NCBI GenBank assembly: GCA_050084985.1
Contig: JBITNC010000001.1
Coordinates: 17,670,001-17,734,000, forward strand
Direction of reading: 5' to 3'
Source: Nageia nagi
Lineage: Eukaryota; Plantae; Pinophyta
Length of the DNA stretch: 64,000 bases
Part shown: positions 15,162-51,939 of the stretch, in pieces
Numbering within the stretch: position 1 is the first letter of the stretch
Layout: the number at the start of each line of letters is the position of its first letter
Translations under genes and position numbers: made by a program
Notes under the pieces: generated by a model
The model's input: the letters and a program-made list of their open reading frames with translations, nothing else
Database searches by the model: none
Told to the model about the DNA's origin: nothing

Positions 15162-15341
15162 CCATCCTGCCTCTAGATGATATAAAACGGTAGGTTGATT
15201 AGCTTAGAGCATAGTAAAGCAGGTGACAGGAATATTAACTCACAAATTTATATGGACCTATTCAGTGCTTGCGTTAATGGAAAGTTGTTGGGGTTTGTTA
15301 ACAAAAAGCAAAATAAATAAAGAAAAAAAAAGCTGAGAATG

Positions 15342-17614: not shown

Positions 17615-17828
17615 CATAGAATAAAAATACAATTTTTTTAACAAATACGATCTGGGGCCAAATATGAAGAAAACGGTAAAAACGACAAAAAAATACGGGA
17701 AAAATGGGGAAAAGACGTCAAAAATACAATAGAATGTAAGTGTTTTAAAATATGGTTAAATTCGGCATGCCTTAAAAAACACGTTTAAACGGAAAATACA
17801 TGTTTAAACGAAGTTTTTTTATTCTATG
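17615..17828. mobile_element. hAT-type MITE (214 bp)
   Basis: TIR CATAGAATAAAAA / TTTTTATTCTATG; perfect 8-bp TSD ATTAATAT. Confidence 0.93.
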
Positions 17829-17926
17829 ATTAATATGCAGGTTTCTATCATTTGATACTCCCAAGCGTATATTGACCTATCATCATCAATTATTGTGCCA
17901 ACTTTGATCAAGTTTACATCTTTGAG

Positions 17927-20900: not shown

Positions 20901-21739
20901 TGATAATCTATGAAACTATGGTGTGGAAGCTAGTTTTGGGTGCATTGACCAATTTGCTCCCCGTATAATGCTGGCAATCATCTTGCAACCATTGCTTGAG
21001 CAAATTTGTGGGCTTACTCAACCCACGGCTAAAGGCCATAAAGTCTTTCTCAATGTAAATCATTCCTTCATTGGACAAGTTGAAAGCCTCTTCGATTCCT
21101 TTCATTGAAAAGTCCATCGGTTGGTTGTCCGGTAATTCTACACAAAAGATTGATAATCTATGAAACTATGGTGTGAAAGCTAGTTCTAGGTGGATTGACC
21201 AATTTACTCCCATATAATGTTGGCAATCATCTTGCAACCACTGCTTGAGCAAATATGTGGGCTTACTCAACCCATAGTAAAAGGCCATAGTCTTTCTTTG
21301 TGTAAATCATTCCTTTGTTGGACAACTTGAAAGCCTCTTTGATTCCTTTCATTGAAAAGTGCATGATTTTGTGTCTTGCGGTATCAAAGAGAACTCTCTC
21401 TAAAAAATTACATCATTTCCCCACTTCCAAACACAATTCTTGGAATGAGGCAGCAGTAGGAATGATGCCTATATCAACCAATCATGATGTGTATAATACT
21501 TCCCAAGACAAGGCAATCTTATCAATGCTTTTAATAACATCCTTCTCAAAACTGATCAGGGTTTCCCTCACCAACCACTTTGAGCAAGGGGAAAGTGACT
21601 TCTAAAGGTTATCTTTAACAACCTTGGCTTTTACTGGCTTCTTCCCCTTTTCCTTACTGCCTATTCCCTTGTTTCTCCTTCTGGATGTTCCAACTTCTAG
21701 TTCTTGCTCATTCCTTCTTTTCTGGACTTTTGGATCCAT
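17927..21739 (-). pseudogene. Decayed LTR-embedded unknown gene of element Z: basic N-terminus, conserved domain, Ser/acidic tract, coiled-coil-like C-terminus
   Basis: Collinear ORF pieces 21739->20908->20176->19038->18466->17927. Conserved block MDFS.....AF...NAPK.SF...LLCRIIG....KFR.EF.GFI.....G.KIRWS..L.D.....L......KFYMNTYLVYLLL is shared with 37148-32049. Confidence 0.75.
20865..21360. repeat. 250-bp direct tandem duplication inside the Z ORF
   Basis: TTGGTTGTCC.TAATTCTACACAAAAGA recurs at 20871 and 21121, and the downstream sequence is duplicated with substitutions. Confidence 0.9.
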
Positions 21740-23038
21740 GTTTAAGATTTTGACGTACCTGCTATAGGAGAACAAGATTAACCCTAAGCTACTATGGAAG
21801 AGTAAAATGGGGGCGAACTAGATATCGACAATCTCATGATGGAGACAAATTAGATCAATTTGGGGAACCATGGTTTTGACAATACAATAGAAAAAGTAAT
21901 GGTGTAACAAACAGAAGGGAACTAACTCTAACTAGGTCACACCAAAACAAACATATGTGAGAATCAAACTTTAAGATAGATGCAACCAAAATGATTTAAC
22001 TTTTTCACCAGATACAATGAACAATAGCAAAGCAAGCAACTACCTATGAATGAATTTTGACCTTGATAATTTTCTCTAACAAAGCTTAACTCTCTCGCTC
22101 GACGAACTTCGCCTGACAAACGACTGAAAAGATTGGAACAAACAAGGTTACTATGGTAGTTTTGACAAAACAAATAGGGAGAAGACAAACAAAGAGTGTA
22201 GGTGGATAAACAAAGGGTTTACTCTTTATACCACAATAGTTTACTGGCTTTCACACCTAGGTAGCTTAGTTTCTAAAGGCTATTCCAACAATCTCCTGGA
22301 AACAAGCGATCAAATTTGAGTGACAGTAATATGAAAACTGAAAGAATATGTCATTTCTTATAAATCCTTTTGAGACAAATGGTGCTTTGCATGTTCCTAT
22401 GAACCAAATTCTGACACTTGGCGAACTATTCCAATGATCTGAAACGGTCGCTCACTTTTAGCAACTTGAAATTTTATGTCGTCATCTGAATGAAGTATTG
22501 AATTTGCTATGTGCACTAGTGAAAATTGGCAAATTCCTTTTCTCCATGTCGCAAATTTTAAGCATCTATCTTTGCATAGACTTGATATCATGTGACCTCC
22601 TTTTTCAAATCTTTACTTGCCAAGCACAAGGGTGTGAGCTTTGGCTCAACAATTTCAAACCTTTTGCAAATTTTCGATCAGGTCGCAAGTTTGGACAATA
22701 ATGCCTATAGCACTTCCATTGGAATGTGCGATTAGCCTTGAGGTCTTGTTAATCTGCAATAAACTTATTCTGCTCCTCCAAAATGCCACATTTTGATTAA
22801 TTTCAGTTTGGGAAACCTCTTATACATTCATCTGGCAATTATCTATCATTCTGGATGAGGTCGCATGTTCTCAGGATAGTGCCCTGGTTGCTTGTTATAG
22901 AAGACTTGCGTCTCACACTGTCATCAAATCGTGCAACTCACTTGCCTATTGGTTAATTGCATGAGGCGAGATTTTTCTCTTGCTATTGGAGTTCCTTGAT
23001 GTCTTGTGTCAATCTAATGAGCAATAAACGACATATAT

Positions 23039-24907
23039 TGTAAGGATCCAAAACACAAATCAAGTGCAATTAAACCCAAAAACACAAATATGCACCAAAC
23101 GTTTGGTCCAAAAGGGCAATTACAAGCATCAAACACCTCAATATGCCAACGTTAGGGTCAGTGCACCAAACACAAGCTCAATCAACATACAAATGCCAAC
23201 GTATGGCCAGAAGCATATATCAATGATCAAACCCTCACAATGCCAACGTGTGGCTCATACATGCATAAAATAGACAAATACACCACACATTGCAATAATG
23301 GACATGTGCACAAAATAATATGAGATCCGAATGCCCACTGGTTGTATATATTATAAAGAATGTAATGTACCAAAAATAAATATTTTTTGTAAATGTCTCC
23401 TACACTTAATTATAAAAGTGAAAAAGAAGTTCATGTGACTAGGAGACATAACTTAAGTTGTGTTTATTTATGTTTTATATTTTTATTTTGTAATAGGGCA
23501 CTTTAAGTAATTTTAGGGTTGGGAGATGTCAACTCCAAATTAGAATATGAGCTTATAAAAGGGAAGTGGGCATCCCATTTGAGGAAGCTTGTGGATCATC
23601 TATTTTATTATTTTTGAGTGAAGGAGATTCCTTTCTCAACCCAAGTGTGTACGTGTTCATGCATATTTGGATCTCAAGGGTTGTGGGCCTTAGTCTTGGG
23701 GGTGTTTGTACACCTAGAGCTAAAGGTAGCTATTGCTTGGGAGACTTCAGGAGTTGTGGGCCTCAATCTTGGGGATGCTTGCACATCTACAGTTGGAGGT
23801 AGCGATTTCTTGGAGAGATCTTGAGGGTTGGAGGCCTTGCATGGGAGCCTAGCCTCATTCTGTTGCATCATTTTCAGATCTGGCCAATTTGTGGCATTTT
23901 TGTGAGCTTGGATCTGCATTTGTGGCACTTTAGCTATTGTATTGGTTTGACATCATTTTTTTAATAAAATTCCTTGGCTGATTCTCTCCATTATTTTGCA
24001 TATTTTTCTGAGTTTTGACATTGTTCCTTGGCTGCAAGTTTATTTCTGTGTTTTGAGCATTCACTTGAGCAATAAAAATAAAAAGAACATTACAAAGAAC
24101 GAATAGCAATACAATACCAAGCTCCCAGAGCTGGACATTGGCCTCTAAGGAGCCAACTAGGGCAAGTTGTGTATCCTCAATGTTGGATGGGCAAGTAGAA
24201 CCATGGGACAACCTCGCTCCCTCAGAACCTGAATCCTCTCCACCAAAGGAGCCCTCCTCTAATCCTAAAGGCCAATTGAATGGCAGAAGCTCAACCTAGG
24301 AATACCACCGGATGGGCAAAGGTGCTACACCAATGCCATAGACAATCAAGATCCCTCAACCTGATGGCCCTTCTAGATGTTGCACCTAGGGGATTGCTCA
24401 GCGCCGCTAAGACTTGTGTCCACATGACGGTATCAATGAGATAGTAGAATAATCAGGTATATCCAACAATGAGGCTCCAGTGCCTCTTTATACACTCAAC
24501 TTTGTTTGGATCTCACCTAAGAGTCATCACCCGACTCCTTAATCCCAACGTTAGCCTTCTAGGGGCCCAGAATGCCCAATGTGGGTCAAGCATGCAAACG
24601 TGGGGGCCTGGAGTGCCATAAATGCCAACGTGGGGGCCTGGAGTGCCATAAATGCCAACGTGGGGGTCTAGTAGTGCCACGCATGCCCAACGTGGGTCCG
24701 GGAGCCATGCGTGGGGTCTAGGTGTCATAATGGGCCAATGTGCGGGTCTACGAGTCTCCCAACTTGGGGCTCACAATGGGTTCCATAGACCCATTAAGTC
24801 TTCTATCCCAAGTTACAATATGAAAGTACAATGCAATGATAAAACATATTACAAGAGGAATCCGTTGGATTCCACAATTAATTACAATCATGTAAGGGGA
24901 CGTAACA
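23039..24907 (-). mobile_element. Solo LTR, family A, nested in Z and itself interrupted by a PDS5-family solo LTR
   Basis: TGTAAGGATCC...GGACGTAACA; TSD TATAT/TCTAT (1 mismatch); homologous to 54124-55286. Confidence 0.85.
23361..24094 (+). mobile_element. Solo LTR of the PDS5-carrying family (734 bp)
   Basis: TGTAATGT...ACATTACA; perfect TSD AAGAA; near-identical reverse complement of 3605-4336. Confidence 0.95.
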
Positions 24908-26577
24908 TCTATGCTAGGTCGCACGAATTCAATGAGTGGGTTAGGTCGCATGTTTTTGAGACAATGCCCTTTACACACCCTTCAAAATGCGACTAACCTT
25001 TTTCCAGTGACATGATAACTGAGCCAGGCCACAACGATATCTCCTTCAGGTCTCGCGAACTTGATAAATGAGCCAGGCCATGTGTTTTCTTAGCATTGCT
25101 TTTTACACTCTCCTCAAATCATGCAACTAGCTCTTCCTTAGGCAAATAGTGGAAAACGATGATCAACTCATGGTATTTATATAGCTCCAACATGCCAGGT
25201 GGGTCCATTTTATCGAGCCAGGTGTTCATTTGAATACGATCGCATGTTTGGGCCGATTAGGCTAGGTTGCATGGTTTAAAATACTTGCTTTTGGCATACA
25301 CTTGAAATCACACGACCTCCTTTTCCCTTGCTCGCATGATGCTCAAATGAGGATCTAAGACCCTTTTCCCTTGCTTGCATGATTTTGAAAACTAGCTTGG
25401 GGCATCACTTTTGAAACGCGCAACCAACTTCTCTTTGACTTGTGCATATGCCAAAATGTAAGGGGTTGCTCTCTTTTATGTCCTTGTTGACTTGATTTTC
25501 GAGAACAAAGCCTAGGTCACATATTTTCAAACACTTGTCCAAGGCACTCTTTTTGAAACGCGGGATCACATTATTTTCTCATTTTGGTCACTTGTTTTTT
25601 GAAAGTATCCTTTTGCATACTTCTAAAACCATCCGACCTACTATTTTCAGCTAACTTTGGTCGCTCATTTCTTCGAACACACCTTTTGCATTCCTCCCAA
25701 AAGCACGACCTCTCCATACTTAGAAATTTTTTGCTCAAATTGAGGTTGGCTAGCCAATATTTGCAATTTTTGGAGGTTTCACTTCTTTTACTATGCCCGG
25801 ATCACTTTCTTGAAAAAACAATCACTTTGACACCTTAAAATGTGCGACCCAAAACAGGAAATTTTTGCCATAATGAACCTTCTTTGGTCGCACCCTTTAT
25901 AAACTTAGCTCATGCACTCTCTTGAAAATATGCAACCTTAAGTGAACTTGTGCAAATCTTCAAGGTCTTAGAAACTTTTGAAGGGTTTTAGCTAAGGCAT
26001 GCTAATTCCATTTTTAGCTCTTGTTTTTCCTGGAATTTACTTGTTGAAGGTACCATTTTGCAAAAAAGTAGGATCCCTAAATTTACGAAAATTAAGCGTG
26101 CGTTGTGCCGGCACAACAGAATCCACATGTCTAAGATTCAACTACGTATTGTTTTTGTATTCTAAAGAAATATTTGCCCACAGGCATTTCAGTATATTAT
26201 TTGAACTGGAACCGGAATGTTCCTGAAACACACAAAGTACCCAACACATTTTTTCCACTCTTCCTCTTCCTGTCTCAGGATAGTTTGAATTGATATTGCT
26301 TTCATATTCTATTTTCACATTGAATAACGCACAAGCATGTATACTTAGTATACAATAATCTTAGCATTTTAGTAGACATTCCTATGTTTGTTTCCATTTC
26401 AAGATACAAAAGAAAGAATAATATTTATTTTCATGGAATAATAATGCAATATATTTAAAAATCAAGGAATCTAGAAGTAGCATATTACTTATTACTTTGC
26501 AGACTTAGAATTACTAAGTCACAATATTTTTTAACTTTGAAATGCACTAACAATGAATTCCAGAAGAAATACAATAC

Positions 26578-30160: not shown

Positions 30161-32048
30161 CATCAAATTGGAAAAGACTCGAAAAAATTCTCTACAGTTC
30201 TATCGCAGCAAAAGATGTTAAGAGCCATGAAGCATTTAAGTCTTAAAGACTAGCATTGACAAATTTTTAACTTACCTTTGCAAGCGGCGATGACAAATGT
30301 GCATCTAGTCAACTTGTAGAGAAAGCACTTCATATCTAGCACTATGAAACCTACCATAACAATTTCTTTGCTAAAGCTTTGGAAGCAAAGGCAATCAATT
30401 GCATATCTAGTTATCATGTAGCAAATACGCTTCATCATTATCATTGTGAAACTTACTTTTATAATTTCTCTGCTTATCTTTCGTAGTGACCATGGTAAAG
30501 GGTATATCTAGCCATGTTGTGGCAAAGGTATTTGAGATACTCATAGCGAAAGAAGGGAAAACAATTGACCTTCCGCATTCAAGAATCCTAGATGACCTAA
30601 GGAGATTTACACAATTGTCATTCATTCCTTGAAGGACGAATGAGTTTCAAAGTCAAAGAAGATCAATCCCATCAAACTAAAAATTGGCATAAATCAATGG
30701 CTATTGCAATTCTTTCTACTTTTGGAAGATCCCATTGACCTCTAGATCATCATGTACAAACATGGTGTTGCTTTGTCTTTTTGAGAGCAAACGAAATTGC
30801 TACATGGCATATTTTAGACATGTTAACAAATACTATGGAAGAGCAAGTGCAAATTTTATAGTCACAAGAATCGGATCAAAACCTAATTGTGGTTGTTACA
30901 CACATATGTCAAGTGTTGGGGGCTTTTTCTTTAAAACCTTGCTGATGGGCAAATGAGCTTCCAAGGCTTGTGGGAAGACACCAACACCTAGGTGATAGGG
31001 CATGACCCCTACCCGCTATGAGGACTGGTTACCTCAAAGGTCTCATGATGGTGTGTGCGAGAGGTTGATCAGGAGACTGGTTGAGATGTTTGAAGTTGTT
31101 CCCAACTCAAATATCATTTGTTTATCAAGGACTCAAAGGGTCCCTGTCTCTAGGAAGTGGTTGTTTCTCAAACAAAATAAAAAAAGGTGGGTTGCGAAAG
31201 ACGCGCAAAAAAATGAAAAATAAAGAAAAAGGTTGAGTAGACAGTGATATGTGAGTTCAGCACAAAAGTTCAATGATCTCACCGACTAGTACAAATTTTA
31301 AGAATCAACTCTAACGGGCTTGTCATGGGTTCCACGCACTCCAAATCCACCTTACTAGTCAACAACATGAATGACCTAGCAAGAGGAGCTTGAAGCTAAG
31401 GTGATGATGACAAATGATGAGATGTAGGTAGAGCTCGGACGAGGGAGTGAAGTTCCTATGTTAAGCGACATATGGAAGCCATCTCAAAGTGTACAAGTCT
31501 ATATTGCAAACTATGAATTGTTATACAACCATGCACTTCTTGAAGTACTTCTAAAAGTGTTCAAGCACTCTTTTGTCCACTTTAAGCAAGATTTACAAAA
31601 TGTACCAAGTATTCAAGACAACACAAGATAGTAACATCCATTCACATTCATAGTTCCAAATGAGAGCATTCACTTATTCATTTACTTGAAATAAATCACA
31701 TTCACAAAATGGAGGAAACTTGCAAGCTTGAAAGTATTAAGTTGTCCAATTTGCAAAATGTCTAATCCTCTACAAATGAGCCCAAATGGGCTATAAATAG
31801 TTTTCTTGGCAACACTAGATGTTGCCCTAACCCTAATTCCAAAATACGAGAAAATACAAATGGACAAATCACAAATTGCCAAATGGCATTACAAAATGCC
31901 AAATGGCATTACAAAATGTCTTCCACGCTTGTGGGAGCAAATCCTCATCCATCGCAAGCTTGGGAATTAAATAACCAATATAATAAAAGTATTTTATCAT
32001 AACATGTGTCTTTTCTTGGAAATAAACAACAAACTATGAAAATTGTGA

Positions 32049-35000
32049 CTAAGATGAATGTGGGCCCAACGCCTTAATGTGTCCCTCGAAATCCTCGTCC
32101 AAGAATTTCACTGTGAGTTCCAATCCATGCAACATCTCTAACATCTTTGGAGCATTCCCAGCAACACAACGTTCAACCTCTTCAAACATCCTTTGCATGT
32201 CATTCTTCCAGGCATGAGCTCTCAACAGGTGTCTCAAGTGACTTCCAGTCTGATAGGTGTTGCCATCATCGATCATGATTAAGCTATGAAGGAAGTGTTG
32301 GCCAGGTCCTTATTTATGATGGTAGCATCATCATCTATGAATTTGACCTGTAAATCCATTTGTTCAAGGCTGGTGTTGGCCTTGTTGTTGAGTGCTTCGA
32401 CCTCCTTTTGCACTTCCTAGAAACAAATAGCTATCTGATTGACAACACCCAAGTAGAACTAGTAATATTCACAAAACTTCACATCCTCAAGCCTTCGACC
32501 TTGTGTCATCTCAAATCTCATTATCATTAGCTTTCGGGAATCTAGGATTCTGAGAAGGCTAGCTCTCTCCACCACAATGTCCTTTAACTTTTGTTCCTCA
32601 AGTGTGGCCCTCTGCAATGCACCAACGAACTGCTAAACCACCACCAAGACCTCATCGATTACCTTCTATTTTACTACAATCATACCCTCCTTGACGGATT
32701 TTATCTTTCGAAGCTCCTCCGTGGGTACCTTTGCTAACTCTAACTCTCTAGTCAATCTTTTTTTAGCAGCTAACTCCTTCTTGAGGCCTTTTATTTCTTT
32801 TTATTTCATCATCCCATCTTTAGGAATTGCCTCAATGTTGGATATGATCGCATGTTTCTGCCCTACCACTCCAATGGGACCTGTATTGATGATTTGGTTT
32901 ATTTGTCTAAGGTCTTCAAGTCATTATGGATTGTCTTTGTCGGCGATTATAGAATTGATGTGAATCGCATTATTGGCCAAATGCACATAAGTCTAGGTCT
33001 TACCCAGGCGAGTAAAGCTTTTGTGACAATCTAAAATCACCCTCGGCAAAAACAACTCCAACTATGGTATTCCAACCCTCAACTAATGAAGGAAACACAC
33101 CCACGTTGGGCCCCTTGGGCATCCAATGACACTACAATGCAAACGTGAGCCTCCCAAGGCCTCCACGCAACTCCTACACCCTAACATCAGCCCTCTAGGG
33201 CACACACCAACACTTGGCACCTCAACGAATGCCTCACAGATGAATATGCAATGCTTGTACACCCACAAATGCAATAAAGCTTCCAACACCAGTATGCAAG
33301 AGACACACACACACATACATAAACAATGGACAACACAATGGAGAGAGAGACACAAGTTGTATTTTATTATGGTATGAAAATGGAATACAATGAGGATCTC
33401 AACAAATCAGATCTAGGGTTCCAAACCCTCTTCAAGTCGAACACACTGCAGAAAAGACTCACTTCCTTAGTATCCAAATCCTCTCCTGCAAAGGAGCCTC
33501 TTCGAACCCTAGCAACCAATGAAGGTAGAAGCTTGTCCTCAGAATACCACCGGATAGACTAGGTGACCCACCTAAGTCATAGAATGCCAGGCTCCCAACC
33601 CTATCACTCCTCGAGACGTCGTCTAGGAATAATGTTCAGCACCACCAAGACTTGAATGCCCAATCGGGTTCAACATAGAAGAAGTATAATCAATAGCTAA
33701 CCTCCTCATGGAACTCCATCCTCAATATATAGCCTCACGTGTCTATCCATCATACCTTGTTATCATCCCAAGCCAAGTCTATTCCAACGTTGGGGTCAAC
33801 AGGTCAACCATGCCAACATGGGGGTCATATTGGCCCAATATGCTAACGTGGGGGTCCCATGGGCTTAGTGTGCCAACATGGGGGTCATAAAGGCCCTCAA
33901 GGCTGACATGGGGTCTAATGGGCCTCCTCAAGCTGACGTGGGGGTCCAAGTGACCTCATAAGCCAACGTGGAGTAAGCGGGGCCCTCCCAACACAATGAT
34001 GAGAGACACAATTATGTATTTTATTATGGAATGGAGGTGGAATACAATGAGGATCTCAATATCTAGATCTAGGGTTCCAAACCCTTTGCAAGTCGAGCAC
34101 CACAGGAAAGACTCACTCCCTTAGACTCTGAATCCTCTCCTGCGAAGGAGCCTCCTCGAACTCTGGCGACCATTGAAGGTAGAACCTCGCCCTCGAAATA
34201 CCATCGAATGGACTAGGTGACCCATCTAAGTCATAGAGTGCCAAGCTCCCAACCCTGTCACCCCTCTAGATGTCGTCTAGGAATAATGCTCAACACTACC
34301 AAGACTTTAATGCTTAATCGGGTTCAATACAGAAGAAGTATATTCAATAGCTAACCTCCTAATGGAGCTCCATCCTCAATATATAGCCTCATGTGTCTAT
34401 CCATCATACCTTGCTATCATCCCAAGCCAAGTCTATTCCAACGTTGGGGTCAACAAGTCAACCATGCCAACGTGGGGGTCATATTGGCCCAATATGCTAA
34501 TGTGGGGGTCCCATGGGCCCAGTGTGCCAATGTGGGGGTCATAAAGGCCTTCAAGGCTGACGTGGGGTCTAATGGGCCTCCTCAAGCTGACGTGGGGGTC
34601 CAAGTGACCTCATAAGCCAACGTGGGGTAAGTGGGGCCCTCCCAACGCTGGTGTATCCTTCTGCTCACTCTGGCCTATACAAGACTCATGCCTATCTAAG
34701 GATTCCCACAATTCGGGATAACCCATTACAAACTAATACAACACTACTCAAGGGGAGACGTCCCATTACTGGGCTCACAATGGGGTCCACAGACCATAAG
34801 CTCCTGCTTGAGTTACACATGTACAACAAGACCATGAACAAACACTAGATTACAAAGTGACCATGACACATTTTTTCAATGGTCCAAATGGGACATCACA
34901 ACTTTCTCCAACCTGATCATTCTCTTCTCTAACTCCAAACTTGTCCCCTACATCCATGTTAAACACGTACAAACACTCTTCCATGTTAACACCCATTCAT

Positions 35001-37148
35001 CTGTGGATGATAGTTGATGGGTTCCAACAACTACCTCCTGAATGGGTGGTGCTTTTCCTGGCCCTTTTCAAGGGTCTCTCTTCTTCACTGCGATCTCCTA
35101 AAACCTCTATCGATCGAGACTAGAAAGGCCTTTTTTTTTAACAGTGCTCTTTTTTGTACTGACTCTGAAGCTCGACCCTTACCCTTAGCTGTCGAAGGTT
35201 TCAAGGAAGTAGGCTTTTAAACAACCTTCACGATTTCTAAAGATTTGTCCTCTTGTTGGGTATCTGGAACATCATTGCGTTGCGTTGTACTCACTTCCTA
35301 CTCATCTTTTGATTCAGCTACTTTTCCTTCCTCTTGACTATCATTAGGTAAGTACCTAGAACTAGAGGATGAGGGGGACCCAAATGGCAGAACGACTGGT
35401 GATGGACATGCAGTTGATTCTCTAGGTGGTCTTGGCAGTGGGGATGGATCCTTCTCTCTGTTCCTAACACACCTCACCATCTTGTCAGTGGCCACCCGTT
35501 CCAGCTCTCTCACATCATGCTCATCAACGGTGTCCTTGACTTCTTGTACTACCTGTTCCACTAGATTCTTGCCACGTATTGATGCATATTGTCTGATGGG
35601 TTCTTCAACCGTGGTGGGAAACTGAGTCACCCTGGAGGTGGACTCTTGTGGTCTTCTTCCCTTCTGTTGTGACAATCTTTTGTTGATAGTGGCTTCAACA
35701 AGCTGTTGTTGATCATGGGCATCCTTGTGCATCTTGTCACGAATCTTCTTCATTTCTACCTCATTGCTCACATTCCGCAAAGGTTCTTCTTCTCAGAGTG
35801 GCTTATGTTCATATGTTTTCTTCCTCTCCTTCAAGTAAAATTGTTGGATCCTATGCTCAGGGTCATAATGGTTGGCGGCGGGCATCTTCTTGAAGTTGAA
35901 TCTCTCCAACTCCTCCTTCATGGTGTCAACGTCCGCCCAAGTCTTGCACTGATATTCACCCACTATTATTGGCAAGTTTGAAGTAGCCGATTTCTTCTGC
36001 CACACTTGTTCATGTAAATAGGCCAACTGCCTCATCATCTCCATAAGTAATAATTTGTTACTCACAAACCTTGGCAATTGATATGGTTGCACGGCTGATC
36101 CATGGATTCTGATGTAGGAATAGCGTTGGTAATGGAGGAAGAAGTCCCCATGCTTCTTCAACTCATCTTGGGCTAAGTTAGAGATCTTGATCACTGTGAT
36201 TTCTCCTTTAAGCTCCTTGTAGATCTCATACTCCCATCCATCGTTCTTCATGATGAAACTATCCTATCTCCTCTCAAGCTTCCATTTGGGGTAGCATCTC
36301 CAAATGGCATATGTTCCTTTCTCAATCCATGCTACTTTCCCTTTAGTCGTGGCCCTATACTTGTCGTGGAGCAACAAGTATATCAGGTAGGAATTAAGGT
36401 AGAATTTGCATGTGGTGCCCATGGATGATAACTGATCTGTAATAGAGTCACTCAACAACTTGCTCCACTTGATCCTTTCCCCTCTAGCAATCTCTACAAT
36501 GAAGCCAAAGAACTATTTTCTGAATTTGGAAGCATCTTCTTTTCCGAGAATTCTAGACAACATCAAGATCATCAACCCCACTGAAGGGTAGAAATTGGAG
36601 CGAGGGGCATTTATGAGAGCATTCCCCTTGAGTCCATGATGCTCATCCAGCATCCAACTCTTTATTGCAACGACAACCTTGTGAGTCTCTTGGTAGCATG
36701 CTAATGACTTTGCTTTGTTGTATTCAAAATTTCCCTCGGAAGTCCATTGGAATGCCATTCTGATGGCATCAAGGCTGAAGTCCATAATGATGTCTCTTTT
36801 GAGGTCTCGAAGGACTCTCTCTCCCTTTTGCCAATGATGATCAACCTCCATGCACAATTATGGAAAAGGAGCTATAAAGGGGATGAATGCACAGGTGGAG
36901 ATGCTGGAGAAGAACACAATGTCTTGTTTGAGGTCATTGACTGATAACCCATGTATTTTCTCCCTCATTTGCATAGGGTCAACATCTTGCCAATCTGTGT
37001 CTTTGATGGTAGCAAGACCTTTCCTTGAGAATCTAGCCCCTTGGGGAAGGGAGTCTTATCTTTCGCAAATGATGATGATGCAATCTTATCTCAGCCGCTC
37101 GAGATCCCTAGCAAAGTCTTTTGCCGAATTACTCTTGGAAGTAGTCAT
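32049..37148 (-). pseudogene. Decayed LTR-embedded unknown gene of element X, interrupted by solo LTR C1; paralog of the Z gene
   Basis: ATG at 37148; pieces 36857-36513, 36458-36264, 36251-35793, 35780-35298 and 32276-32049. Motifs KFYLNSYLIYLLL and YSYIRIHGS...PY.LPRFVSNKLLLME..RQ are shared with Z. Confidence 0.78.
33022..34900 (-). mobile_element. Solo LTR, family C (C1), with an internal ~655-bp tandem duplication, nested in X
   Basis: TGTGACAATC...GACATCACA; TSD GCTTT/ACTTT; homologous to 52308-53553; block ~33340-33990 is repeated at ~33995-34645. Confidence 0.88.
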
Positions 37149-37363
37149 GATGCTTAAGCTTGCAACGAGGTCTTCCAAGGGTGATGTGTGGGTTTCCAAG
37201 TGGTGAGGGAGGGCATCCAATGTTGGATTGGCTTGTCTCCCAATTGCTAGTGCAAGCCCTAGGATGTAATGACATGAAATTCAAACTCAAAAATCTGCAA
37301 TTTTGGTGCAAAAGTAGAAGATGAGTGCGATTTGAATTTGAGAAAATGAGGTACCCAAGCTTG

Positions 37364-37371
37364 TATTTATA
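37364..37371 (-). promoter_or_regulatory. TATA box (TATAAATA) between the palindrome array and the X ORF
   Basis: Position and flanks are conserved with 41172-41179 in Y and 44952-44959. Confidence 0.6.
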
Positions 37372-37528
37372 GCTGAAACTAGCTTCCAACAAACCCTAGT
37401 CGGCTAGTTCAAGGAGGAAAATACATCTTAATCGTCCAGCTAGCCAACCTCGGGATGTGTGCCTGCATCAAATTTCATGTCGAGTCGGCCAGGACCGGAC
37501 GTGGGGGTTTCAAGGCACCTTCAGGCTC

Positions 37529-38496
37529 GGAGCATGCCCAAAAATGACAAGATTTTGTCTTTCTGGATCATGCGCCAGCCTTGAGGATGAATGCTCTTCT
37601 CACGTTGGCCTTCCTTGCTCCTCTGCTCGTTCAACTTGACACTGAAGCTCACCTTGAGACCTGATCTTGCCTGTTTTTTGCTCTTTCAAGGCGCCAAGCT
37701 CGTAAATTTTGACCTTTAAGCTTGGCCTAGACACTCCCCAAGCTCGGCGCATGGTTCAAAAAGTCAAGTTTTTGTCTTTTGGAATCATGCGCCGGTCTCT
37801 CCAGCCTTTCTAGTTTGAGTACATGATCCAGAAAGACAAGATTTTGTCTTTCTGGGGCATGCGCCAAGTTGGAGATGGCCAGATTTGCCCTTTTGCGAGT
37901 TTTTGCTTCCGCGCCTTAGCCAAATTTTCATGATTTTCTCCTCCCGAAGGCTTCCTAGGTCTGGCGCATGATTCAAAAAGTCGAGATCTTGTCTTTTGAA
38001 ATCATGCGCCAACCCTTTTGGAGTTGCTGGAGCTGATATTGGGGTTTGAGGCTTCATGCCTTGGCCAAATTTTGTCTATAGGATGAACTAGAAAACTTTA
38101 TGGGTTGGGCGCATGGTTCAAAAAGGCAAGATTTTGACTTTTTGAGGCATGCGCCAACCTCCTGGATGCTTGGGTTTGACTTCATCATTCTCGAACTTGT
38201 CCTGTTCTTCCTCCCAGCTTGATCGCATGGTTCAAAAAGACAAGATTTTGTCTTTTGAAATCATGCGCCAGCCTTGAAGTACCTTCTTCTTGCCTTTTTC
38301 GAGTTTGATTCCGATCCGGAGTGCTCCTTGCCCTTGGCGCATACTCCAAAAAGACAAGATTTTGCCTTTTGGAGCATGGGTTGGGCTTGAAAGTGGCCTA
38401 GATTGCCTATTTGGGATTTAACTCCAGTCTGGATGGCTCCCTGACCCAATGGCATGATTCAAAAAGACAAGATTTTTTCTTTTGAAATCATGCGCC
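37529..38496. repeat. Array of eight ~48-bp palindromic units (GGCGCATG-ATTCAAAAAGAC-AAGATTTT-GTCTTTTGAAAT-CATGCGCC) with dissimilar spacers
   Basis: Units at about 37529, 37746, 37817, 37963, 38108, 38222, 38336 and 38449. Confidence 0.92.
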
Positions 38497-39894
38497 AACC
38501 CTAGGAGGAGCCTAGTTTGACTTATTTTTGTCCCGAATTGCCCTGGACTCTCTTGGTTCACCTAAGACCAACTTTTGATTTTCCATACTTAGGCCATTTT
38601 TTGAGGAATTTCAGGTTTTTAGCTTGCTATGACTAAGCCCACCCGAAGGATGAAGCTTGAACCTAGGGGACTCAACATTGAATCAGGATCTTACGACACT
38701 ACTTGGACTAGACAAGACAACAACATGACAATGTTTTCACAAGGGTGTTGAGGGTCCCCAAAATCGCAAGATTTTGGGGCATGTTATGTTTTAGTCACAA
38801 CATCAAGATGACATGAGGATACGAAGGGCCATTTAATCTAAAGTCATTATCTTTACATTAGTGTACATCTGACAAGACCAGTTGAGTAGTCACTAGTAAT
38901 GACCAAACCATGTCAAAATGATTGAAGTTGAAACTCACATTCAAGTAAAGACAAAATATCACTTGAAACATAGATTTACTTTGTGAAGCCATATGTGTTA
39001 TGATACAAAGTGTTGTTCAAAAAATATAAAGTAAAGCACAAAATATCATGATGTGAACATAAGTTGCATAACAATTTGGAAAGTTTGAAAGCATAAATAT
39101 TTAGAAGTTACAAAGTTTGAAAGCATAAATATTTAGAAGTTACAAACTTTGAAAGATTAAAGATTTTCAAGATTTTTGGTATAAATTTGTGTTTCTTATT
39201 AGGACTAGGGGCTAATTGAACTTTTGTTGCAAGAATAATACAAGCTCAAGAAACTTATTCTATAAATTGTTATATTACTTTTATGGAATGAAATTTTGAT
39301 ATTTCATAACATTGCTATATTGCTCTTTGTGAAATAAATAGAATTACAATTTGAAATATGTTGTTTGGGCATGGTTGGTGAAGACTGTTTTTATGCGATA
39401 CTTTTCTTTGCATTTTCATTTTTGATTTGTAGAAACTATTGAATATGGTCTAATGCATTTACATTAACTCATGAGATTTAGTCATATTTTCGCATGTCAA
39501 AACCTAGAATCTGATATTTTAAAACTCATATTTATCACATGCAATTTGTGTCAGATCATTGCATATGGAGATCTCATACTTTGGTTGTACACTATTTGTG
39601 GCAATCTGTTGAGTGCTTGTTTTTCCAACTTGGTTTGTTTAAGGGCCATCCTTATTAACTAGAAGAGATCATTGCCTAAGAGTAGATGAGTTAATTGAAT
39701 TGTCCAAGGATTTCCTCGATAAAAAATCCTATCAACAGGTTCCAAAGCGTCAAAAAGGTAAAAATCATGTATATTAACTCTTTTCACAATTTTGTTTAAA
39801 TATTTTAGCAAATTGTTATTTCATGCTATAATCATTCAATATCAAATTATCATATTTTTCTCATTTTGGTCATTTGGGCATTAGAAGACCTTTC

Positions 39895-42800
39895 TGTTGT
39901 GACTAACACAACATGCCCCAAAATCCTACGATTCTGGGGAACCTAACGCCTTGGTCAAGCATCATCATGTTAAACATAGAAGTTTGTCTAGCCAGACCTA
40001 ATGCTCGTCATCACTGGAAATAGGAAGATCAAATTCGGTGCAATTAGGGAACCCACGACAAGCTCAAACTCAAGCAAGGCAAAGAGGAGCTCCCAAAAGG
40101 CCAGTGCATGCCTCTAAGAGTTGTGTTTGTGACTTTTTCTGGCATGCACCTAACAAGTTCAAAGCCAAATCAATCGAACGCATGCATCCAAAAGACCAGC
40201 ACATGCTCCTAAAAGACCAATTTGTGACTTTTTTCAACATGCACCAGGTGGAAGGAGTCCTTTTGGCAAAGTTTGGGACCAAGTTGAGCAAATCTAAGCC
40301 ATCAAGAAGCTAGCACATTAGGAAAAAAGACAAAATCTTGTGTTTTTTTGGCATGCGCCTGACCAGAAAGGCCACCAGAGTTGAATTTGGACAGTGAGAA
40401 GTCAAACTGAGTCTTCTAGGAACCCAATGCATGCCTCCAAAAGACAAAATCTTGTCTTTTATGGTATGTGCCTTGCCCAGAAGGAGGCCTAAACGACTTT
40501 GAAGGTGAAAACCGGCTAAGGCATGAACACTCAAGCTCGAGATCAGGCACAGAAGGATCCAAGAGGGTTGGCGCATGATCCCAAAACACAAAATGTGGCA
40601 TGCGCTCAGCTCACGAGGAGCTCCGGTTGAGCAAAAAACGTTAAACTTGGCTAAGTCTTTCACTCGAAGGTTCAAAACAAGCAAATCTGGGAATTAGGAG
40701 GCAAGCGCATGTCTTTTTTGGCATGCACTCAAGCTTGGACAACTGGCAGGATGGGCACACGAAAAAAAGATAAAAATTTGACTGTTGTAGCATGCGCCCA
40801 ACTAAGGAGGGAACCTGGAGGAGTTCGAGGTGAAATTTTGACAAGTTTAGGTTCCAAAAAAGACAAAATCATGAGCAACCTGAGGCTAGAAAGGTGACAT
40901 AATGATGAAAGAGACGAGTTGTGGAGCTCGAGAAACTCCCACTAGGATGACTAGCAGCCTCAAGTGGAGTGCATGCAATAAAAAGACAAATTCTTGTGTT
41001 TTTTTGGCATGCGCCAACCTAGAAGACTCCCTCATTCCCTTGTTCCAGATGTTAAGTTGGAAGATTGCAAATTCAAGACTGGCAGGCAACTCAAGATTGA
41101 CCATTTGGGCGGTTGTGATCATTTTACTCCTGATTCTAGTCGACTAGGGTTTTCAAAACTCTAATTTTTCCTATAAATAAGAGGGATTTGGTTTATTTTT
41201 GCAAATTCAAATCATGCTTTCTTCAACATATGTGCTAGGAAAAGGAAAGAACTAGAGCGTCAAGATAGACAAATAATTTCCAAACCCTTTGTGGTGACTT
41301 GAGAAAACCTTCCTCTTCACTTTGCTAAAACGATCACATCAAGTACCTAAATGATGGAGACAAACTCCAAGGCACCAAAGAAAAAGCTCAAGGTGAAAGA
41401 GGTAGTAACCACCAACAATGCCTCATCAAGTCAGAAACCCCGGATTGACCTTATAGCCTCAATAAGAGCATTACACGATGATTCCAGCCAGAGGGTAGAA
41501 GACAAATCCACAGAGACTTACGATGTGAGTAAGTTTGTTTTTAAGGTCAATAATACACTTTTTGTCACCAAAGTCTTCCTAAAAAAAGATCCAACGAAAT
41601 CTCAAGACTTGGAGGTCCATAGTCTAAAGACTGAAGTTGGTGAAGTTAGGACTACTGGGGCAAAGCGAATCAAGGAAGTCACCAAACTCGCCAAGGAACT
41701 GGAGGAAATCCAAGAGAAACAGAGCCTTGAAGGAGAAAGCACATCTTCCAATCCAAATCAATCCAAGACAAGGTGATCGCAAACAGACAGTGGCGTATTC
41801 AACAGGCGAACGATGAAGGCTTCGGGCCAAGTGTTACAAAGGCAAAGAAGATGGACAAGTTTTAGTAGACTTGAGGAGCATTGAGGTGTGGTGTTGCAGT
41901 CGCAATAATTTAATTTAATTGCAATTTTATTTCAAATTTGGATTTTTAAAACTTATTAAATTCAGTAAAGCTTTGTGATGGATGAGGATTTGCTCCCACA
42001 AGTGCTGGAATAAATCTTGTAACACCATGTGGTTGATTCTTATTGGACCACTTTTAATTTTCTTGAAATTCGCATTGGGGTTAGGGCAACACTTAGGGTT
42101 GCCATGAAAAACTATTTATATCCCCTAGATGCTCATTTGAAGGGAGGATGGAATTTTGGAATGTGGACAAAAACATTTGCAAATAGATAAGTAGAATAAT
42201 TTTTCCTATCAAGTACTTGTCTATTGCGAATATGGCATGATCTTTAAGTTGAATTGCACAACTCCATTTCTTTGTTATTATGAGCTTGGACATGTAATGT
42301 TATCATTGATGTGTGTTGCTTAGATGCTTGGAACATTTTGTAAACCTCTTGAGGGGTGGGCAAAAGAGTGGTTGATTATCCCTTCAAAGTGTTGAATGTG
42401 ATGCATAGTTAATGATTGCTCATGGTAGGACACTAGACTTGTATAATTTTGAAGTGTATTCCCCTATGACGTTTAACACGAGAACTTCATCCACATGTTG
42501 AAAGTGTCATCCTTGTGCTCCCTTAGATGCATGCTCCCTTCATTAGACCATTTGTGTTGTTGGCTAGTGCAAGTGGATATCCATTCTTCTAGACCATTCG
42601 TGTTGTTGGCTAGAATGAGAGGATATGTGGATGTGTGGAACTCACAACAAACCCAAAGGAACTTGGCATTCAGACACTGTACCAATCGATGGAGCCATTT
42701 CCAATCTTCCCTCCTACACTTTTTCTTTCATTTTTCACTTTTTCCGCGGTTTTTGCACCCCCATTTATTTATTTACTTGCAGTATTTGAGAAAGAACCCT

Positions 42801-43040
42801 TGTTTAGACATTGAGACAATCTAAGCCCTTGATTAACAAATTTTATTTGAGTTGGTGTTAACTTCAAACATCTTAGTCAGTCTTTGAGTCTTGTTCTTGC
42901 ACATCCATCCAAGAGACCTTTGAGGTAACCAGTCCTCATAGTGGGTAGGGATAATGCCCTTCCACCTAGATGTTGGTTTCTTTGCGAGCCTTGCAACCTT
43001 TTTACCCATCCGCAAGGTAGGAAAGAAAAACTACCCAACA
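39895..43040 (+). mobile_element. Element Y: internally deleted relative of X (3146 bp solo-LTR-like unit)
   Basis: TGTTGTGACTAACACAACA...CCCAACA; TSD CTTTC/CTATC; shares both termini, the palindrome array (40104-41015) and the TATA boxes with X; only a short ORF remains (41351-41776). Confidence 0.85.
40104..41015. repeat. Degenerate palindrome array of element Y, about nine units (GCGCATG...AAAAGACAAAATCTTGTCTTTT...CATGCGCC)
   Basis: Same unit as 37529-38496, more decayed, immediately upstream of the TATA at 41172. Confidence 0.8.
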
Positions 43041-45643: not shown

Positions 45644-48600
45644 CGTTGGAAAGGAAACCTTTCCTCCTACTCGGCGATCGCTTAAACGAGAAAACGACCC
45701 AGCATGTACGTGAGAACGTGTTACTGAACTCCTCTTGTAACGACTTATACCTCAAGGTTTCTATCAGAAAGCTCGTGTCGTTAATACGAGCTTTAAATTG
45801 TGTAGGTCTTGTTTGGGAATCAGCTGAGTGGTGTAGTAGAGATAATAACTGTTAACTCACGTTTTTTGTAGGGAATGAGGTATTTTATCTTGCAATAGTT
45901 CGAAAGTTGCTATAAGTTTAAAGAAAGTGTAAAATAAAGAAAAGAGAAGGGGACGAGAATGTTTCGATACTGGTGAGATGATAAAGAAAAGGTCACAGTG
46001 AAGCAATGTCTACGGTTTCTCACTTATGGATCATTCAAGAAGTCTCATTCGAAGTCCTCCAACTTAAAAATAGAATAACCTCAGTTCAATCTATTCTTAA
46101 GAGGAGCAGGGAGGAAAGCTGACTATCGGTACTCTGCAAGCAGGACCAATGCAATCAAAAGAAAGAAACGACACAACAAGTGCACACAAACTTTGTTTCG
46201 AATGAGGAAATCTAATTTGATGTCATAGAAAGAAGAAAAGCTCAGAATACGTTCACTTACTATGCAAATTATGTATAGAAAATGATTTGGGAGTGATTCA
46301 AAAACTTTTAAAAAAATTCAAAAAAAATTCTTAAAATTCAAAAATTTTCAAAGAAAAACGTAAAAGATTTTAAATCATCTAAAAAAGCCCCAAAATGGTC
46401 AAATCCACAATCTCACAAATGACAAAGCTCTTTGTTTCAAGTACTCCACCACTTTGTATTAAATTCGTGATAAAATTACAAGGATACATCAATTTGCCAA
46501 TTTTCCACAAATTTGCACTAAGAACATTTTGCCTCAAAAGTGACACCCTATGGTCTATTTATAGACTTTTTAGGTCAAATTTGTGGATGTTGCCCTAATT
46601 CTTAAAAAAGCTTTAAAATGCTAAATTGAGATTACAATGTCGTTTTAGTAGGAGAACAATACTCATCCCACTAAAATATGCTAGAAATAAAATATTTACA
46701 AAAATTAATGCCCTCTCTCATGGGTTTCGAGGCATCTTGCATCAACTTGGCAAAATTTGAAGCTTCAAATCATCATTTTGGATCCCTTTGTCAATCTTTT
46801 GAGTTCCTTCCTTCTTTGAATCAGGATTTGCCTACAATGTTATCATTCTGGAAATTTTCAAAGAATTATGAGAAGATTTTTCAAAAAAATGGATTTTTTG
46901 GTATATTTTTCAAAAAAGATGGGGGTTAGGTCCGAAATTTGGAAAATTTTAAAAAAGTGGATTTGAGCTCATGGATGGATGGAGGATGGGATTATAAGGT
47001 ACATGGGAAATTTTGAGAGGTTTTGAGAAAGATTTGAAGTCTTTGGCAAAATTTTCGATTTTCATATCTAGATTTTTTTGGGAGAAAAAAGTGAAAATTT
47101 CCATAGGAATGAAACATGCCTCCTAGATTTTTGAGAACTTAAACTTGCTCAAATCTGAAAATTCCCAAGTTTAAATGAGCTAAAAATGTGCCCTTCCATG
47201 CAATGAAGACAAAATTTTCAAATTTGGAGTAAAATTTATCAATCCTCCTCAAGTTAGGCGCTAGTTTTCACCTCATTGGAATTCTAATCACTTGAAAAAC
47301 TGCGCCTAGCTTCTTGGTGCCTTTAAATTGCTCAAAATTGAAACTTTGAAAGTTTAAATGTGCTTGGAATGGGGTCTTTTATCCATTTATGCTTTCAAAT
47401 TTGCTTTTTGATCAAAAATTCATTTTCCTCCTTGACTTGGGCACCAAAAAAGACTTCATTGGAATTCCACTGGCATGAAAACATGCGCCTATGCTTTTGA
47501 GGCATTTCCTTTGCTCAAAAGTGAAATTTTGTGCATCTAAACCTTCTTGAAATGCCCTTTTCCTTGATCCCAAGCCTTCAAGCTTGATTTTTGGACAAAA
47601 TTTATCTTTTCTCCTCATGCTAGGCTCCAAAATTCATCCCATTGGATTTCCATAGCCATGAAAAGATGCACCTAGCCTTTTGGGCCTCAGAACTTGCTCA
47701 AATTCAAAAAATTCAAGACATAAATGTGCTAGAAATCATCATTTTCACCTGATGGACACCTCAAACTTAATTTTTCATGTTTTTTACACATTTCCCTCCA
47801 AGTTAGGCACCATTTTTCACTACTATCGATTTAGAAAAATTAGGAAAACTACGCCTAGCTTTTAGGTGCTCAAAAATAGCTCAAATTTGATTTTTCCAAG
47901 ACCTAAATGTGCTCAAAATCATTTTTCCAACCCAATGAACCCCTCAAACTTGTGTTTTGATCAAAATTTGTCAAATGTTTTCATTCTAGGCACCATTTTT
48001 CACTCCATTAGAATTCCATAGCCTTGAAAACTTGCGCCTAGCCTTTAGGGTGCTCAAAATCGAAAATTTTGAGATCTAAATGTGCTTAGAATGATGTCTT
48101 CCTTGTTCCCAAGCATCTAAATTTGTTTTCCGAGCAAAAAACACTTCATTTTTTCATTCTAGGCGCCAAAAATCACTCCATTGGATTTCGAATCATTTGA
48201 AAACTCGCGCCTAGGAATTTGGAGGTCTAAACTTGCTCAAAATTGAAAATTCCAAGACCTAAAGTGCCTTTCCGGACTCAAAATGTATATTTCCGACCAC
48301 TCGCGGCATTTCTGAGCTCAAACTTGACCAAAACGCTCTTTCGGGCACCTTTGAACTCAAACTCTACATTTTCAATGATTTTCGAACTCAAACGATGCAA
48401 AAACGACCATTTTCGCCCTTCCGAGCTCAAACTTGTCATTTTCAATCATTTCCGGCCTTTCCAAGCCCAAAGTGTGAAAAAAAAGACCATTTTCGAGCAT
48501 TTCCGACCATTTTGAGCTCAACTTTGCCTTTTTAACCATTTACAAGCTTTCCGAGCTCAAACGGTGCAAAAACGCACATCTTTACTGTACTTACCACTTC

Positions 48601-51600
48601 CAGAATCAAAATTGACCAAAACGCACTTTTTCGTGATAATGACCATTTTTTAGCTTTCCGGTTTTAGAATATATTATACTTAGGTATAATATTTGCTTAA
48701 GTTCTCTAGGAGTATTTTATTCTTTATTCCTAGGTTTAATTATTTTTTAGTTTGTTATGATTAGATCATAACAAATATTTGTCATCTTGTGGATTTTATC
48801 CTCATGCATGGTTATCATGCATTTGTCCACTAGCTTGTACTTTCCCCTATTTATTTGGGCTCTCCTTCATTGTATAATATCAATTCATTATATTTCCTTT
48901 CATGGTATCAAAGCTAAACGGTCTCTAAATCTGCCCTCAAAGTTTGTTTAGCGAATTTGTGAGGAGGGATTGGCCCCACCTCCATTTTTTTGTTACATTC
49001 CAATTTGTTGTGGCAGATGTCCTATTTTTTTATGAGATCCGAAGTGTTGGAATCTTGATACACATAAGATTACGCATCATCCATCTTAACCTCTTAAGCG
49101 TCATTGGTTGGTCGTAGGATGTGGTTTTATTTTTTGGTATTTTCTGGGTGTCTCTAATGAGTTTCCTATAGATGCTTCTTACATGGTGTGACTCTTTGGT
49201 GACTGAATCTGCATTCGTGCTTCTTTGCTGCTCATTTGTGCCTCTGCTGTGTGGATATCTTTGTTGCATTTTATTTTATGGGTCTCCTTGTTTGGCCACC
49301 ATGCGTGGACTTTTGTTTGTCGGGCATGTCTTGCATTGCGATGATTGATTCCATTAGTTCACTAGCCTATACGTTGTCTCTTCACAACTTGCTTGCAAGC
49401 TTGGACGTTGCATGGTTGGTGGCCTGTACTTTGTGTGGGGAGCACATTTTTGTCTAGGCTAAATTATCTTATTGTGGACGCCCACTTGTGCCATATTTGG
49501 CATCGTTCGGCTCTTTGAATGATCTACGTTTTTTTTTGGAGATCGAATTTGTTGTGCTCCTTGTGTGGAGCTCTCCTCATTTTTCATGGGCTCTTCTGTA
49601 GGCTCATCTCCTGCTCTCGGCACCTTTGATACGCACCATCCTAGCCTCCCTGGCAGCTCCTTCCATGGGTGTTTTTAGCATCACATACGCTACCCATATC
49701 TATTGCAGCTCATCTTCGCATGGAAAATCGGCCCTTTTCTATGTGTGTCTTGGCCAAACATCTGCTTCGCTTTTCATCACCGTCTCTTTCACTAGTTCAC
49801 AGCTCGCTTGCTAATTGGATCTCTCCGCTGACTAGACTGCATTTTTGGCGTGCTTGGTTGGCTGAAAAACGTCATATTGAAGATAGACACATTTTTCGAG
49901 TTAATTATTGATCAAATTTGATTTCTGGCAATGGATTTGGATACCCATTTTCGAGATAAACACTTTTGGTTTTTGTCTCACTCAATTTCAAGGTCATTTG
50001 GCAAAGTTACAAGCCTTGGAAGATTTGGATTGCATTCCAATTTCGAATTTTTTGGGCAGTTTCAGTCATCGGTGGTTTTTTTGCCTTATTCTGAGTTTCG
50101 GTGGTTATTTTTCGGAATTGTCAATTTCACAATCTTCTTGGTTCCTGTTGGTCGTTTTGACTATAAATACAACCCCATTTGGTCCACCTACTACCCGAAA
50201 TTTCAGTCGGAAGTTTCAGAATTAGATTATTAATTAAATTGGTCAAATTTAATTTGATTAATTTTCTAAAGTTTTGGGCTCTACGAATTTGATTTTTACC
50301 TCTCAACCAAATTAATTAAATATCTTGAGCTCCAGGTATTCGTTTAGGGTGTCGTTTTTTGCATTGTGGAGCAGACTTTGGGTATTTTTTGATGAACTTG
50401 GTTGTAAGCCTGATCTATAAAGGCATTTTTTTATGGGGGTAATGTTTTTTTGGTATTCTTTTATTGCCTTGTTGGGTGCCTTAACAAGTCTTATAGTGCA
50501 ACTCATGGTTTCTACCCTTGTCCTTAAGGTAGTGTATTTGACTCCTTCGTGGATCTTATGGTGGTCTTTCCATTACCTTATTTTGTGACTTGCTATTTCT
50601 CCTCGTCGGCATTAAGGGGGATTGTCGACTACTAATGCTTCCTCTTTTTGGATGCAACCTCTTTTTTAAGGATCTCAGCATACGAGCTCCAAGCTTGGCT
50701 CTCTAATGACGTGTGCTTTCTTCTTTGCATAAGGACTCCTGGCTTGGCTCTCTAATGATGTGTGCTCCTTATTCTCCATGGTACACGGGCTCCTCGTTGG
50801 TCTCTTGGCTTAGCTCTCTAATGACATGTTCACGAGAATTATGCTACTTTTTTTGCTTGTGGTCTACTAGCTGCATTGCTGATATAATTTTCGTATTGGA
50901 GTTTGTGCCCTAGTTTCAGGTTGAAGGACTCTCTTTGTTGGTGTTGATCAAGTAGTGTTGTGTGGCTCACTGCTGCATATTGGTAGCTCTTTGATCCTGA
51001 TTTATTTGGAGGTTCTTCAGCTTTTGGCTTACAGTTGTTCGTTGGCATCAATCTCTTCACATCATTATACTAGATAAAGTGAGCATGATTTCTTGAGTGG
51101 TGATGGAAGTTATCCACCTTCTTGCTTTTCTTTCTCTCTTTTAGGGGGTAGTTTTTCCTACGGGTTTTTACCTTTTCTCTGCTTATGAGAGATTTTTTGT
51201 ATATGAGTACCTAATCAAGCCTTGTTGCCGAGACTCTTTTTTTTGTGGATGTGCCACTTTACCTCCTTATTCACTTAAGGGGGAGTGTTAGAGTATATTA
51301 TATTTTGGTATAATATTTGTTTAAGTTCTCTAGGAGTATTTTATTCTTTACTTCTAGGTTTAAATATTTGTTAGTTTGTTATGATTAGATCATAACAAAT
51401 ATTTTTCATCTTGTGGATTTTATCCTCACGCATGGTTATCATGCATTTGTCCACTAGCTTGTATTTTGCCCTATTTATTTGGGCTCTCCATTGTATAATA
51501 TCAATTCATTATATTTCCTTTCATCCAAGCTAATACTTGACAAAAACGCTTATCTTTGTCACCTTCGTTACATCCATTGCTCTCGAACTTAAACTTGAGA

Positions 51601-51939
51601 AAAACACTCATTTTCGTCACACTTGACACTTGTGAGCTCACACTTTGCAAAAACGACCCCATCTCCATTGGCTTCATTCTAGACACAAAAAATCCATGCT
51701 TTGATACTCTCTCTCAGATCCTAGCTCCTTAGCTCCAAAATCAGTGATTGGATACTTTGATACTGTTTAGGGTCTTCTTCGCAAGATCTCCTTGAATCAC
51801 TCCCTAATATCATGCTTGCACTCTTTAGAATGAACTATCCGTCGCCAAAAGCCAATTTCAAGGCAATGCACCTCATTGCCTTTGCAAAAATAGGGTCCCC
51901 AAAATCTTGTATTTTGGGGTGTGTTGTGCGGGCACAACA
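45644..51939 (-). mobile_element. Solo LTR B2 (~3.4 kb net), nested in a family A LTR
   Basis: Perfect TSD GGGTC; starts TGTTGTGCCCGCACAACA on the minus strand; reverse-complement homolog of B1. Confidence 0.9.
48662..51523 (+). mobile_element. Structurally complete non-coding LTR element (TRIM-like, copia-type signals), nested in B2
   Basis: ~240-bp LTRs at 48662-48902 and 51286-51523; PBS TGGTATCAAAGC at 48903; PPT AAGGGGGAG ending at 51285; decayed TSD TCCGG/TCCAA; no gag/pol recognisable inside. Confidence 0.88.

Follow-up and report, generated by a model that had tools for sequence, protein, structure and literature searches.

Genes that reside in a long terminal repeat (LTR) are known from retroviruses: sag of mouse mammary tumour virus (MMTV) and nef of human immunodeficiency virus (HIV) lie in U3 and are hence copied into both LTRs, their reading frames measuring a few hundred codons and their LTRs 0.6–1.3 kb. 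The unit described here, which we call X, belongs to a 64,000-nucleotide stretch of the conifer Nageia nagi (GenBank assembly GCA_050084985.1, contig JBITNC010000001.1, positions 17,670,001 to 17,734,000 of the forward strand; hereafter the window, within which all coordinates are given), the whole of which is a nest of repeats. X is a dead 6-kb unit flanked by a target-site duplication (TSD), and we find it rather probable that it is the solo LTR of a gymnosperm retrotransposon whose large conserved accessory gene likely lies in U3 and encodes a predicted DNA-binding regulator. No homology with the retroviral genes is implied: the open reading frame (ORF) of X spans about 1,070–1,300 codons and comes with its own promoter box and palindrome array.

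Among plant elements, Sireviruses (SIRE, Ty1/copia) are described as having repeated palindromic motifs ahead of a conserved TATA box, and a sense extra ORF with a palindrome cluster of its own, for which an internal promoter has been proposed (PMC2829016, PMC4728375), all of which recalls X. However, the SIRE env-like ORF is placed internally, between pol and the polypurine tract (PPT), and the LTRs measure about 1.3 kb, whereas in X and its diverged relative Y the ORF lies, with array and promoter, inside one TSD-bounded unit of 6–8 kb; the CGG-CCG core of Sirevirus palindromes is also missing from X, whose motif differs. The Tat, Ogre, Retand and Athila elements likewise resemble X in their conserved accessory ORFs, composed of a folded domain, a linker and a coiled coil (PMC6317226, PMC4408406, PMC11963269, PMC7264820), in their repeat arrays and in their very large LTRs, the largest reaching about 5 kb according to Neumann et al.; such an ORF is reported in gymnosperm TatIII, and gene23 of Grande has its own promoter, as the ORF of X would have in its box 1. 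Nevertheless, the sources at hand (PMC6317226, PMC4408406, PMC11963269, PMC3485330, PMC7264820) place plant extra ORFs internally, and those of this group (PMD, Transposase_28, Athila ORF-1) are often antisense and belong to Pfam families that are not among the matches listed for the ORF family of X. The rice elements Retrosat2, RIRE3 and RIRE8 share with X LTRs above 3 kb, many solo LTRs (2.6:1) and an extra ORF described without a function, but they are grass-specific, and their ORF0 is described upstream of gag-pol rather than in the solo LTRs (PMC3485330). Finally, VANC belongs to the Arabidopsis VANDAL Mutator-like DNA transposons and is described with DUF1985 and DUF287 (PDB 9lnk; PMC5735166, PMC10398659), neither of which is among the Pfam matches listed for our ORF family, and X has TG..CA ends, a 5-bp TSD and no transposase. 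By the features tested, X is neither a SIRE nor a VANDAL member; in its working it resembles a solo LTR that combines a cis array of the Sirevirus style with, possibly, a regulator of the VANC kind. An exact-phrase literature search, whose coverage left out most subscription journals and supplements, returned no paper on an ORF inside a plant LTR.

Unit X and its family

X (30914..38802, minus strand) measures 6,005 bp once an unrelated nested insertion is subtracted. As the original prediction had it, this is a single unit with TG (30914) and CA (38802) termini and a perfect TSD, TCAAG, at 30909..30913 and 38803..38807 (5/5 match; P=0.0015 for identical 5-mers at two random positions of the window). 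Its terminal inverted repeats are only 5 bp long. The nested LTR-type insertion (33022..34900), with its own TSD matching at 4/5 positions (GCTTT/ACTTT) and an internal 654-bp duplication, is absent from other copies, and its removal is backed by contigs that join 33017 to 34902 in 4/4 runs. The same four runs cover X over its whole length with flank depth near zero, and at 30914 depth jumps sharply from 0.3–25 to 250–683; since the step falls exactly on the terminus, this end must be common to many copies. Also as predicted, X holds no gag or pol (no meaningful Pfam score in three ORF pieces), and there is neither a primer-binding site (PBS) beyond its 3' end nor a purine tract ahead of its 5' end. 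Neither end is repeated internally in X or Y.

Read on the minus strand, the parts of X follow each other in the order originally proposed. The 5' terminus (38756..38802), which also occurs in the relatives Z, Y, B1 and B2 and in the unit nested in locus L001, has two hairpins (folding z −4.7). It is followed by an array of seven ~45-bp palindromes with GCGCATG..CATGCGC arms (37512..38500; repeat family D6), candidate cis-regulatory and binding sites in which the 8-mer CATGCGCC occurs 10 times, as against at most 3 times in each of 50 shuffles; three of the palindromes fold with z of −5.4, −5.0 and −2.6. Next come promoter-like box 1 (37340..37400), with TAGGGTTT, TATAAATA at 37371-37364 (within CTATAAATA at 37372-37364) and TCATTT 16 nt further on, which probably serves the ORF and stands 215 bp before its ATG, then the ORF itself, and then promoter-like box 2 (31770..31835), made of TAGGGCAAC at 31829-31821, a hairpin, TATTTATA at 31799-31792 and TCATTT. 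The conserved 3' region (30914..31770), the putative R-U5, ends in CCCCAACA.

The second ORF-bearing unit, Y (11255..26118, minus strand; TSD GAATC, 5/5; 8,052 bp without its three nested insertions), has the termini and part order of X at only 25–38% protein identity in tblastn segments. A tblastn search located the broken ORF homologue of Y at 21511-18376, and we place it at 17460..21739 (minus strand, 3' limit approximate). A 250-bp tandem duplication, 90% identical, lies inside this ORF at 20865-21364, and about 1.6 kb separate box 1 from the ATG (21750-24950, minus strand), with a possible splice acceptor just ahead of the start codon, so that the Y mRNA may carry a 5' intron. The short B units had been described as gene-less, which holds for B1 (11438..15161, plus strand; 3,724 bp, TSD CCATC, inserted in Y, its single promoter box accompanied by a 183-bp repeat array) and B2 (45644..51939, minus strand; TSD GGGTC) but does not extend to another short relative, the TSD-bounded, ORF-truncated unit Z (39895..43040, plus strand; 3,146 bp). 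In addition to the family termini and both promoter boxes, Z retains a 141-codon open frame matching the C-terminal domain of the ORF (profile E 0.0006 among 516 chunks; tblastn E 0.001). Neither a 5' end nor a TSD was found for a further unit, B3 (43450-45140 and 55287-56499, plus strand), which nested insertions of about 10 kb have split; it carries a 183-bp palindromic repeat array, two promoter boxes and the 3' end typical of the family. The TG..CA ends are intact in X, Z and B1, and one 3'-end base is changed in Y (CT for CA) and B2. Five units in all carry 5-bp duplications (four matching 5/5, one 4/5).

A metagenome scan confirmed at least two loci, L001 and L002, among at least 580 pattern matches, both with ORF, box 2 and an X-type 3' end. 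In L001, positions 1-1688 hold a close relative of X, 1.7 kb long, which retains array and box 2, lacks the ORF and differs from X in its palindrome core; it is inserted in reverse inside the ORF of another family member. The coexistence of ORF-bearing X and Y with the shortened Z, B1, B2 and L001 nested unit indicates a family with long ORF-bearing and short deleted forms.

Nine box-2 and four box-1 sites, aligned on their TATA-like box, have a common layout on the ORF strand, often with TAGGG 25–40 nt upstream and, in most, a TCATTT-like site 14–16 nt downstream. At box 2, six of the nine read TATAAATA or TATAAGTA, and TATTTATA occupies the same position in X, Z and the L001 nested unit. As anticipated, this second block occupies the position at which the short units have their sense-strand TATA box; in seven units it stands 856–1,027 bp ahead of the 3' end. 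The aligned units share no conserved poly(A) hexamer. The positional homology of box 2 with that TATA box would put the ORF ahead of what is likely the genomic promoter. We infer that box 2 is the genomic-RNA promoter and, by analogy with Sireviruses (PMC2829016, PMC4728375), that the array side is the U3 end, in which case ORF and box 1 would both belong to U3.

A decayed gene and its predicted product

The X ORF runs from an ATG at 37148 to a TAG at 32051-32049 (minus strand). Its 5' part (34906..37148), broken by stops and frameshifts, would encode a folded domain of ~480 residues followed by a low-complexity linker, and its 3' part (32049..33021), with 8 stops and one frameshift near 32,305, a small beta-rich domain and long predicted helices. 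Single-frame reads of its three pieces contain 14, 8 and 0 stops in 747, 240 and 86 codons (22 in 1,073). Six of the 14 fall within 35,100-34,906, a linker stretch whose frame is itself shifted when set by eye against P0006, so that the real stops number at least 16, besides about four frameshifts. Nevertheless, 14 stops in 747 codons are far fewer than in shuffled sequence (mean 45.9, minimum 30), so that the ORF is clearly a former gene, and its evolution under constraint is supported. The predicted long ORF thus proves to be a former ~1,070-codon gene that is no longer open. With these lesions, the X copy cannot be a working cassette, and the proposal that every solo LTR leaves behind a complete expression cassette finds no support in the copies examined (X, Y, L001 and L002), all of which have stops or frameshifts. 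Homologous proteins were named only in Taxus chinensis (two of the 20 clusters looked up).

PMD, Transposase_28 and Athila ORF-1 had no Pfam match in 66 proteins at E<=0.1 and are absent from the 25 of 53 families listed for 145 alignment members. Neither Pfam nor Foldseek nor VIA-align matched a transposase or integrase. The sole structural lead is a weak resemblance of the predicted fold to VANC21 (PDB 9lnk), a DNA-bound transposon regulator, and the N-terminal domain keeps several conserved basic residues. We predict the protein to be a DNA-binding regulator that would act on the palindrome array of its own LTR; granted that the gene lies in the LTR, a VANC-like function can be suggested only tentatively. 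A somewhat unlikely alternative accepts the same architecture but makes the protein a structural or chaperone-type particle factor, comparable to an env-like ORF product, and leaves the array to host factors. The long predicted C-terminal helices (pLDDT 60), the weakness of the VANC21 match and the description of palindrome arrays in Sirevirus LTRs both with and without an env-like gene (PMC2829016, PMC4728375) would agree with it. By contrast, the only structural lead and the retained basic residues point to DNA binding, and the copies share no hydrophobic segment (best 19-residue Kyte-Doolittle means of 0.5–1.9, at differing places).

Is the unit an LTR?

We consider it likely that the gene resides in the LTR. 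The TG..CA ends, the 5-bp duplications, the position of box 2 downstream of the ORF and a 5' end that is not repeated inside X or Y all speak for an LTR; the enclosure of a constrained gene in one TSD-bounded unit, the recurrence of this layout in the diverged Y and the sharp end at 30914 lend partial support to the proposal of an accessory gene in U3. The lack of PBS, PPT, gag and pol inside or beside the units is what solo LTRs would show, and in Taxus wallichiana a solo to intact ratio of 5.5:1 is on record (PMC9364684). Several observations weigh on the other side. A PBS was seen at none of eight 3' ends and a purine tract at none of six 5' ends, while an element nested inside B2, used as a control for this inspection, shows both. 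No full-length element, with two such units around PBS-gag-pol-PPT, was seen in the window, in L001 and L002, or among the loose ends listed, at least one of which, at 30914, lacks a PBS. Moreover, in the L001 host a purine run and TGTTGG directly follow the stop codon (by eye), 1.2 kb before a CCAACA end without PBS. These could be a true PPT and the start of a 1.2-kb LTR, which would place the ORF internally in that family; if so, it is plausible that the X and Y families moved the LTR boundary upstream over gene, promoter and array.

The L001 host, built there as a 3' LTR would be, also lends some colour to a reading that we judge improbable, namely that we are dealing with an ordinary 3' extra ORF of the internal region, adjoining a short LTR as in SIRE, Athila or TatIII, and that X is a rearranged derivative. 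The internal region is indeed where plant extra ORFs are described (PMC7264820, PMC4408406, PMC6317226). However, X and Y each have an exact TSD and different, family-conserved 5' and 3' ends, and on this explanation two families with about 35% protein identity would each have had to undergo the same double deletion on their own. In B1 and B2, a similar purine run occurs at roughly the corresponding position within a unit bounded by a TSD (by eye), so this run need not be a working PPT.

We also hold it improbable that the unit, rather than being an LTR, is unpaired by nature and transposes as a whole, with an integrase or its own protein mobilising it in trans. The absence of PBS and PPT from all readable ends of nine units and the conserved terminal hairpins would fit this idea. 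Yet a DDE DNA transposon is hard to reconcile with inverted ends of 5 bp, with the lack of a transposase or integrase match and with a helical model to which no RNase H-fold transposase corresponds; the unit also lacks the terminal direct repeat or primer site needed for reverse transcription, and a high solo share is on record for cupressophytes (PMC9364684). Last and very improbable is an LTR of opposite orientation, with genomic RNA starting at plus-strand CTATAAATAG (31791) and the ORF antisense in R/U5, since X box 2, a perfect TATA box on the plus strand, and the antisense 3' ORF with a plant mobile domain described in gymnosperm TatIII (PMC4408406) are outweighed by the ORF-strand reading of six of nine units with their downstream TCATTT-like site and by an array that would then lie downstream of the promoter, unlike in Sirevirus LTRs.

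If X is a solo LTR, integrase would have inserted a full element and recombination between its two giant LTRs would have left a single copy. Box 2, about 0.9 kb ahead of the 3' end, would start the genomic RNA, so that everything upstream of it, ORF included, would be U3, and each round of reverse transcription would place it in both LTRs. Box 1 would drive a separate mRNA ending in the same LTR, whereby each intact LTR, solo or not, could supply the protein in trans. More speculatively, the N-terminal domain might bind the family's palindromes and prevent DNA methylation from closing the promoter, in the way VANC serves VANDAL transposons, the C-terminal helices serving for oligomerisation. 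The ORF-less or ORF-truncated Z, B1, B2 and L001 nested unit might then be deletion derivatives, which would retain the array and depend on protein supplied in trans. In the fullest form of this model, a sequence-specific anti-silencing gene of the VANC type would have been brought into U3 by gymnosperm LTR retrotransposons, beside the array it binds, making of each LTR or solo LTR a self-contained, self-activating cassette that can switch the family back on in trans; we regard this complete scenario as unlikely.

Other elements and implications

The window contains several further features. An intronless PDS5-like frame (1650-2912, minus strand; Pfam PF20168, E 2.8e-44) with one stop lies downstream of a sequence ending in PBS-like GCTCTGATACCA at ~3590, beside an LTR at 3604-4336, and could be a host fragment captured by an LTR element. 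This LTR-like copy and another at 23361-24095, both of 735 bp, 97.7% identical and in opposite orientation, represent a young family, one copy being nested three deep in Y. The control element nested in B2 (48661-51524) has paired 240-bp LTRs (93% identical), a Met-type PBS, a PPT and a T-rich internal region without a long ORF. Members of a 1.2-kb LTR family with 30-bp GCCAACGTGGGG repeats (15342-16545, 23039-24907, 33022-34900, 52310-53553 and 54125-55286) have repeatedly inserted into X, Y and B units, with a PBS-like site beside the copy at 54125. A decayed LINE-type reverse transcriptase occupies 61596-63134 (plus strand; Pfam RVT_1, E 2.7e-11). A short exon-like stretch at ~27850-27975 (minus strand) presumably resembles acyl-CoA thioesterase II, and the window could be part of an intron.

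Plant extra ORFs are described as internal and solo LTRs are treated as non-coding scars; X would depart from both. If a 1,000-codon gene does lie inside LTRs of 6–8 kb, solo LTRs would keep coding capacity, length-capped standard LTR finders would miss such elements, and the multi-copy "hypothetical genes" annotated in conifers, for instance in Taxus, would be parts of LTRs. The function of accessory ORFs in plant retrotransposons is a long-open question, made directly testable here by a candidate VANC-like fold adjoining a candidate binding array. Should a VANC-like gene indeed reside in U3, the formation of solo LTRs would multiply the activator rather than remove the genes of the element, offering a route for retrotransposon accumulation in heavily methylated conifer genomes.

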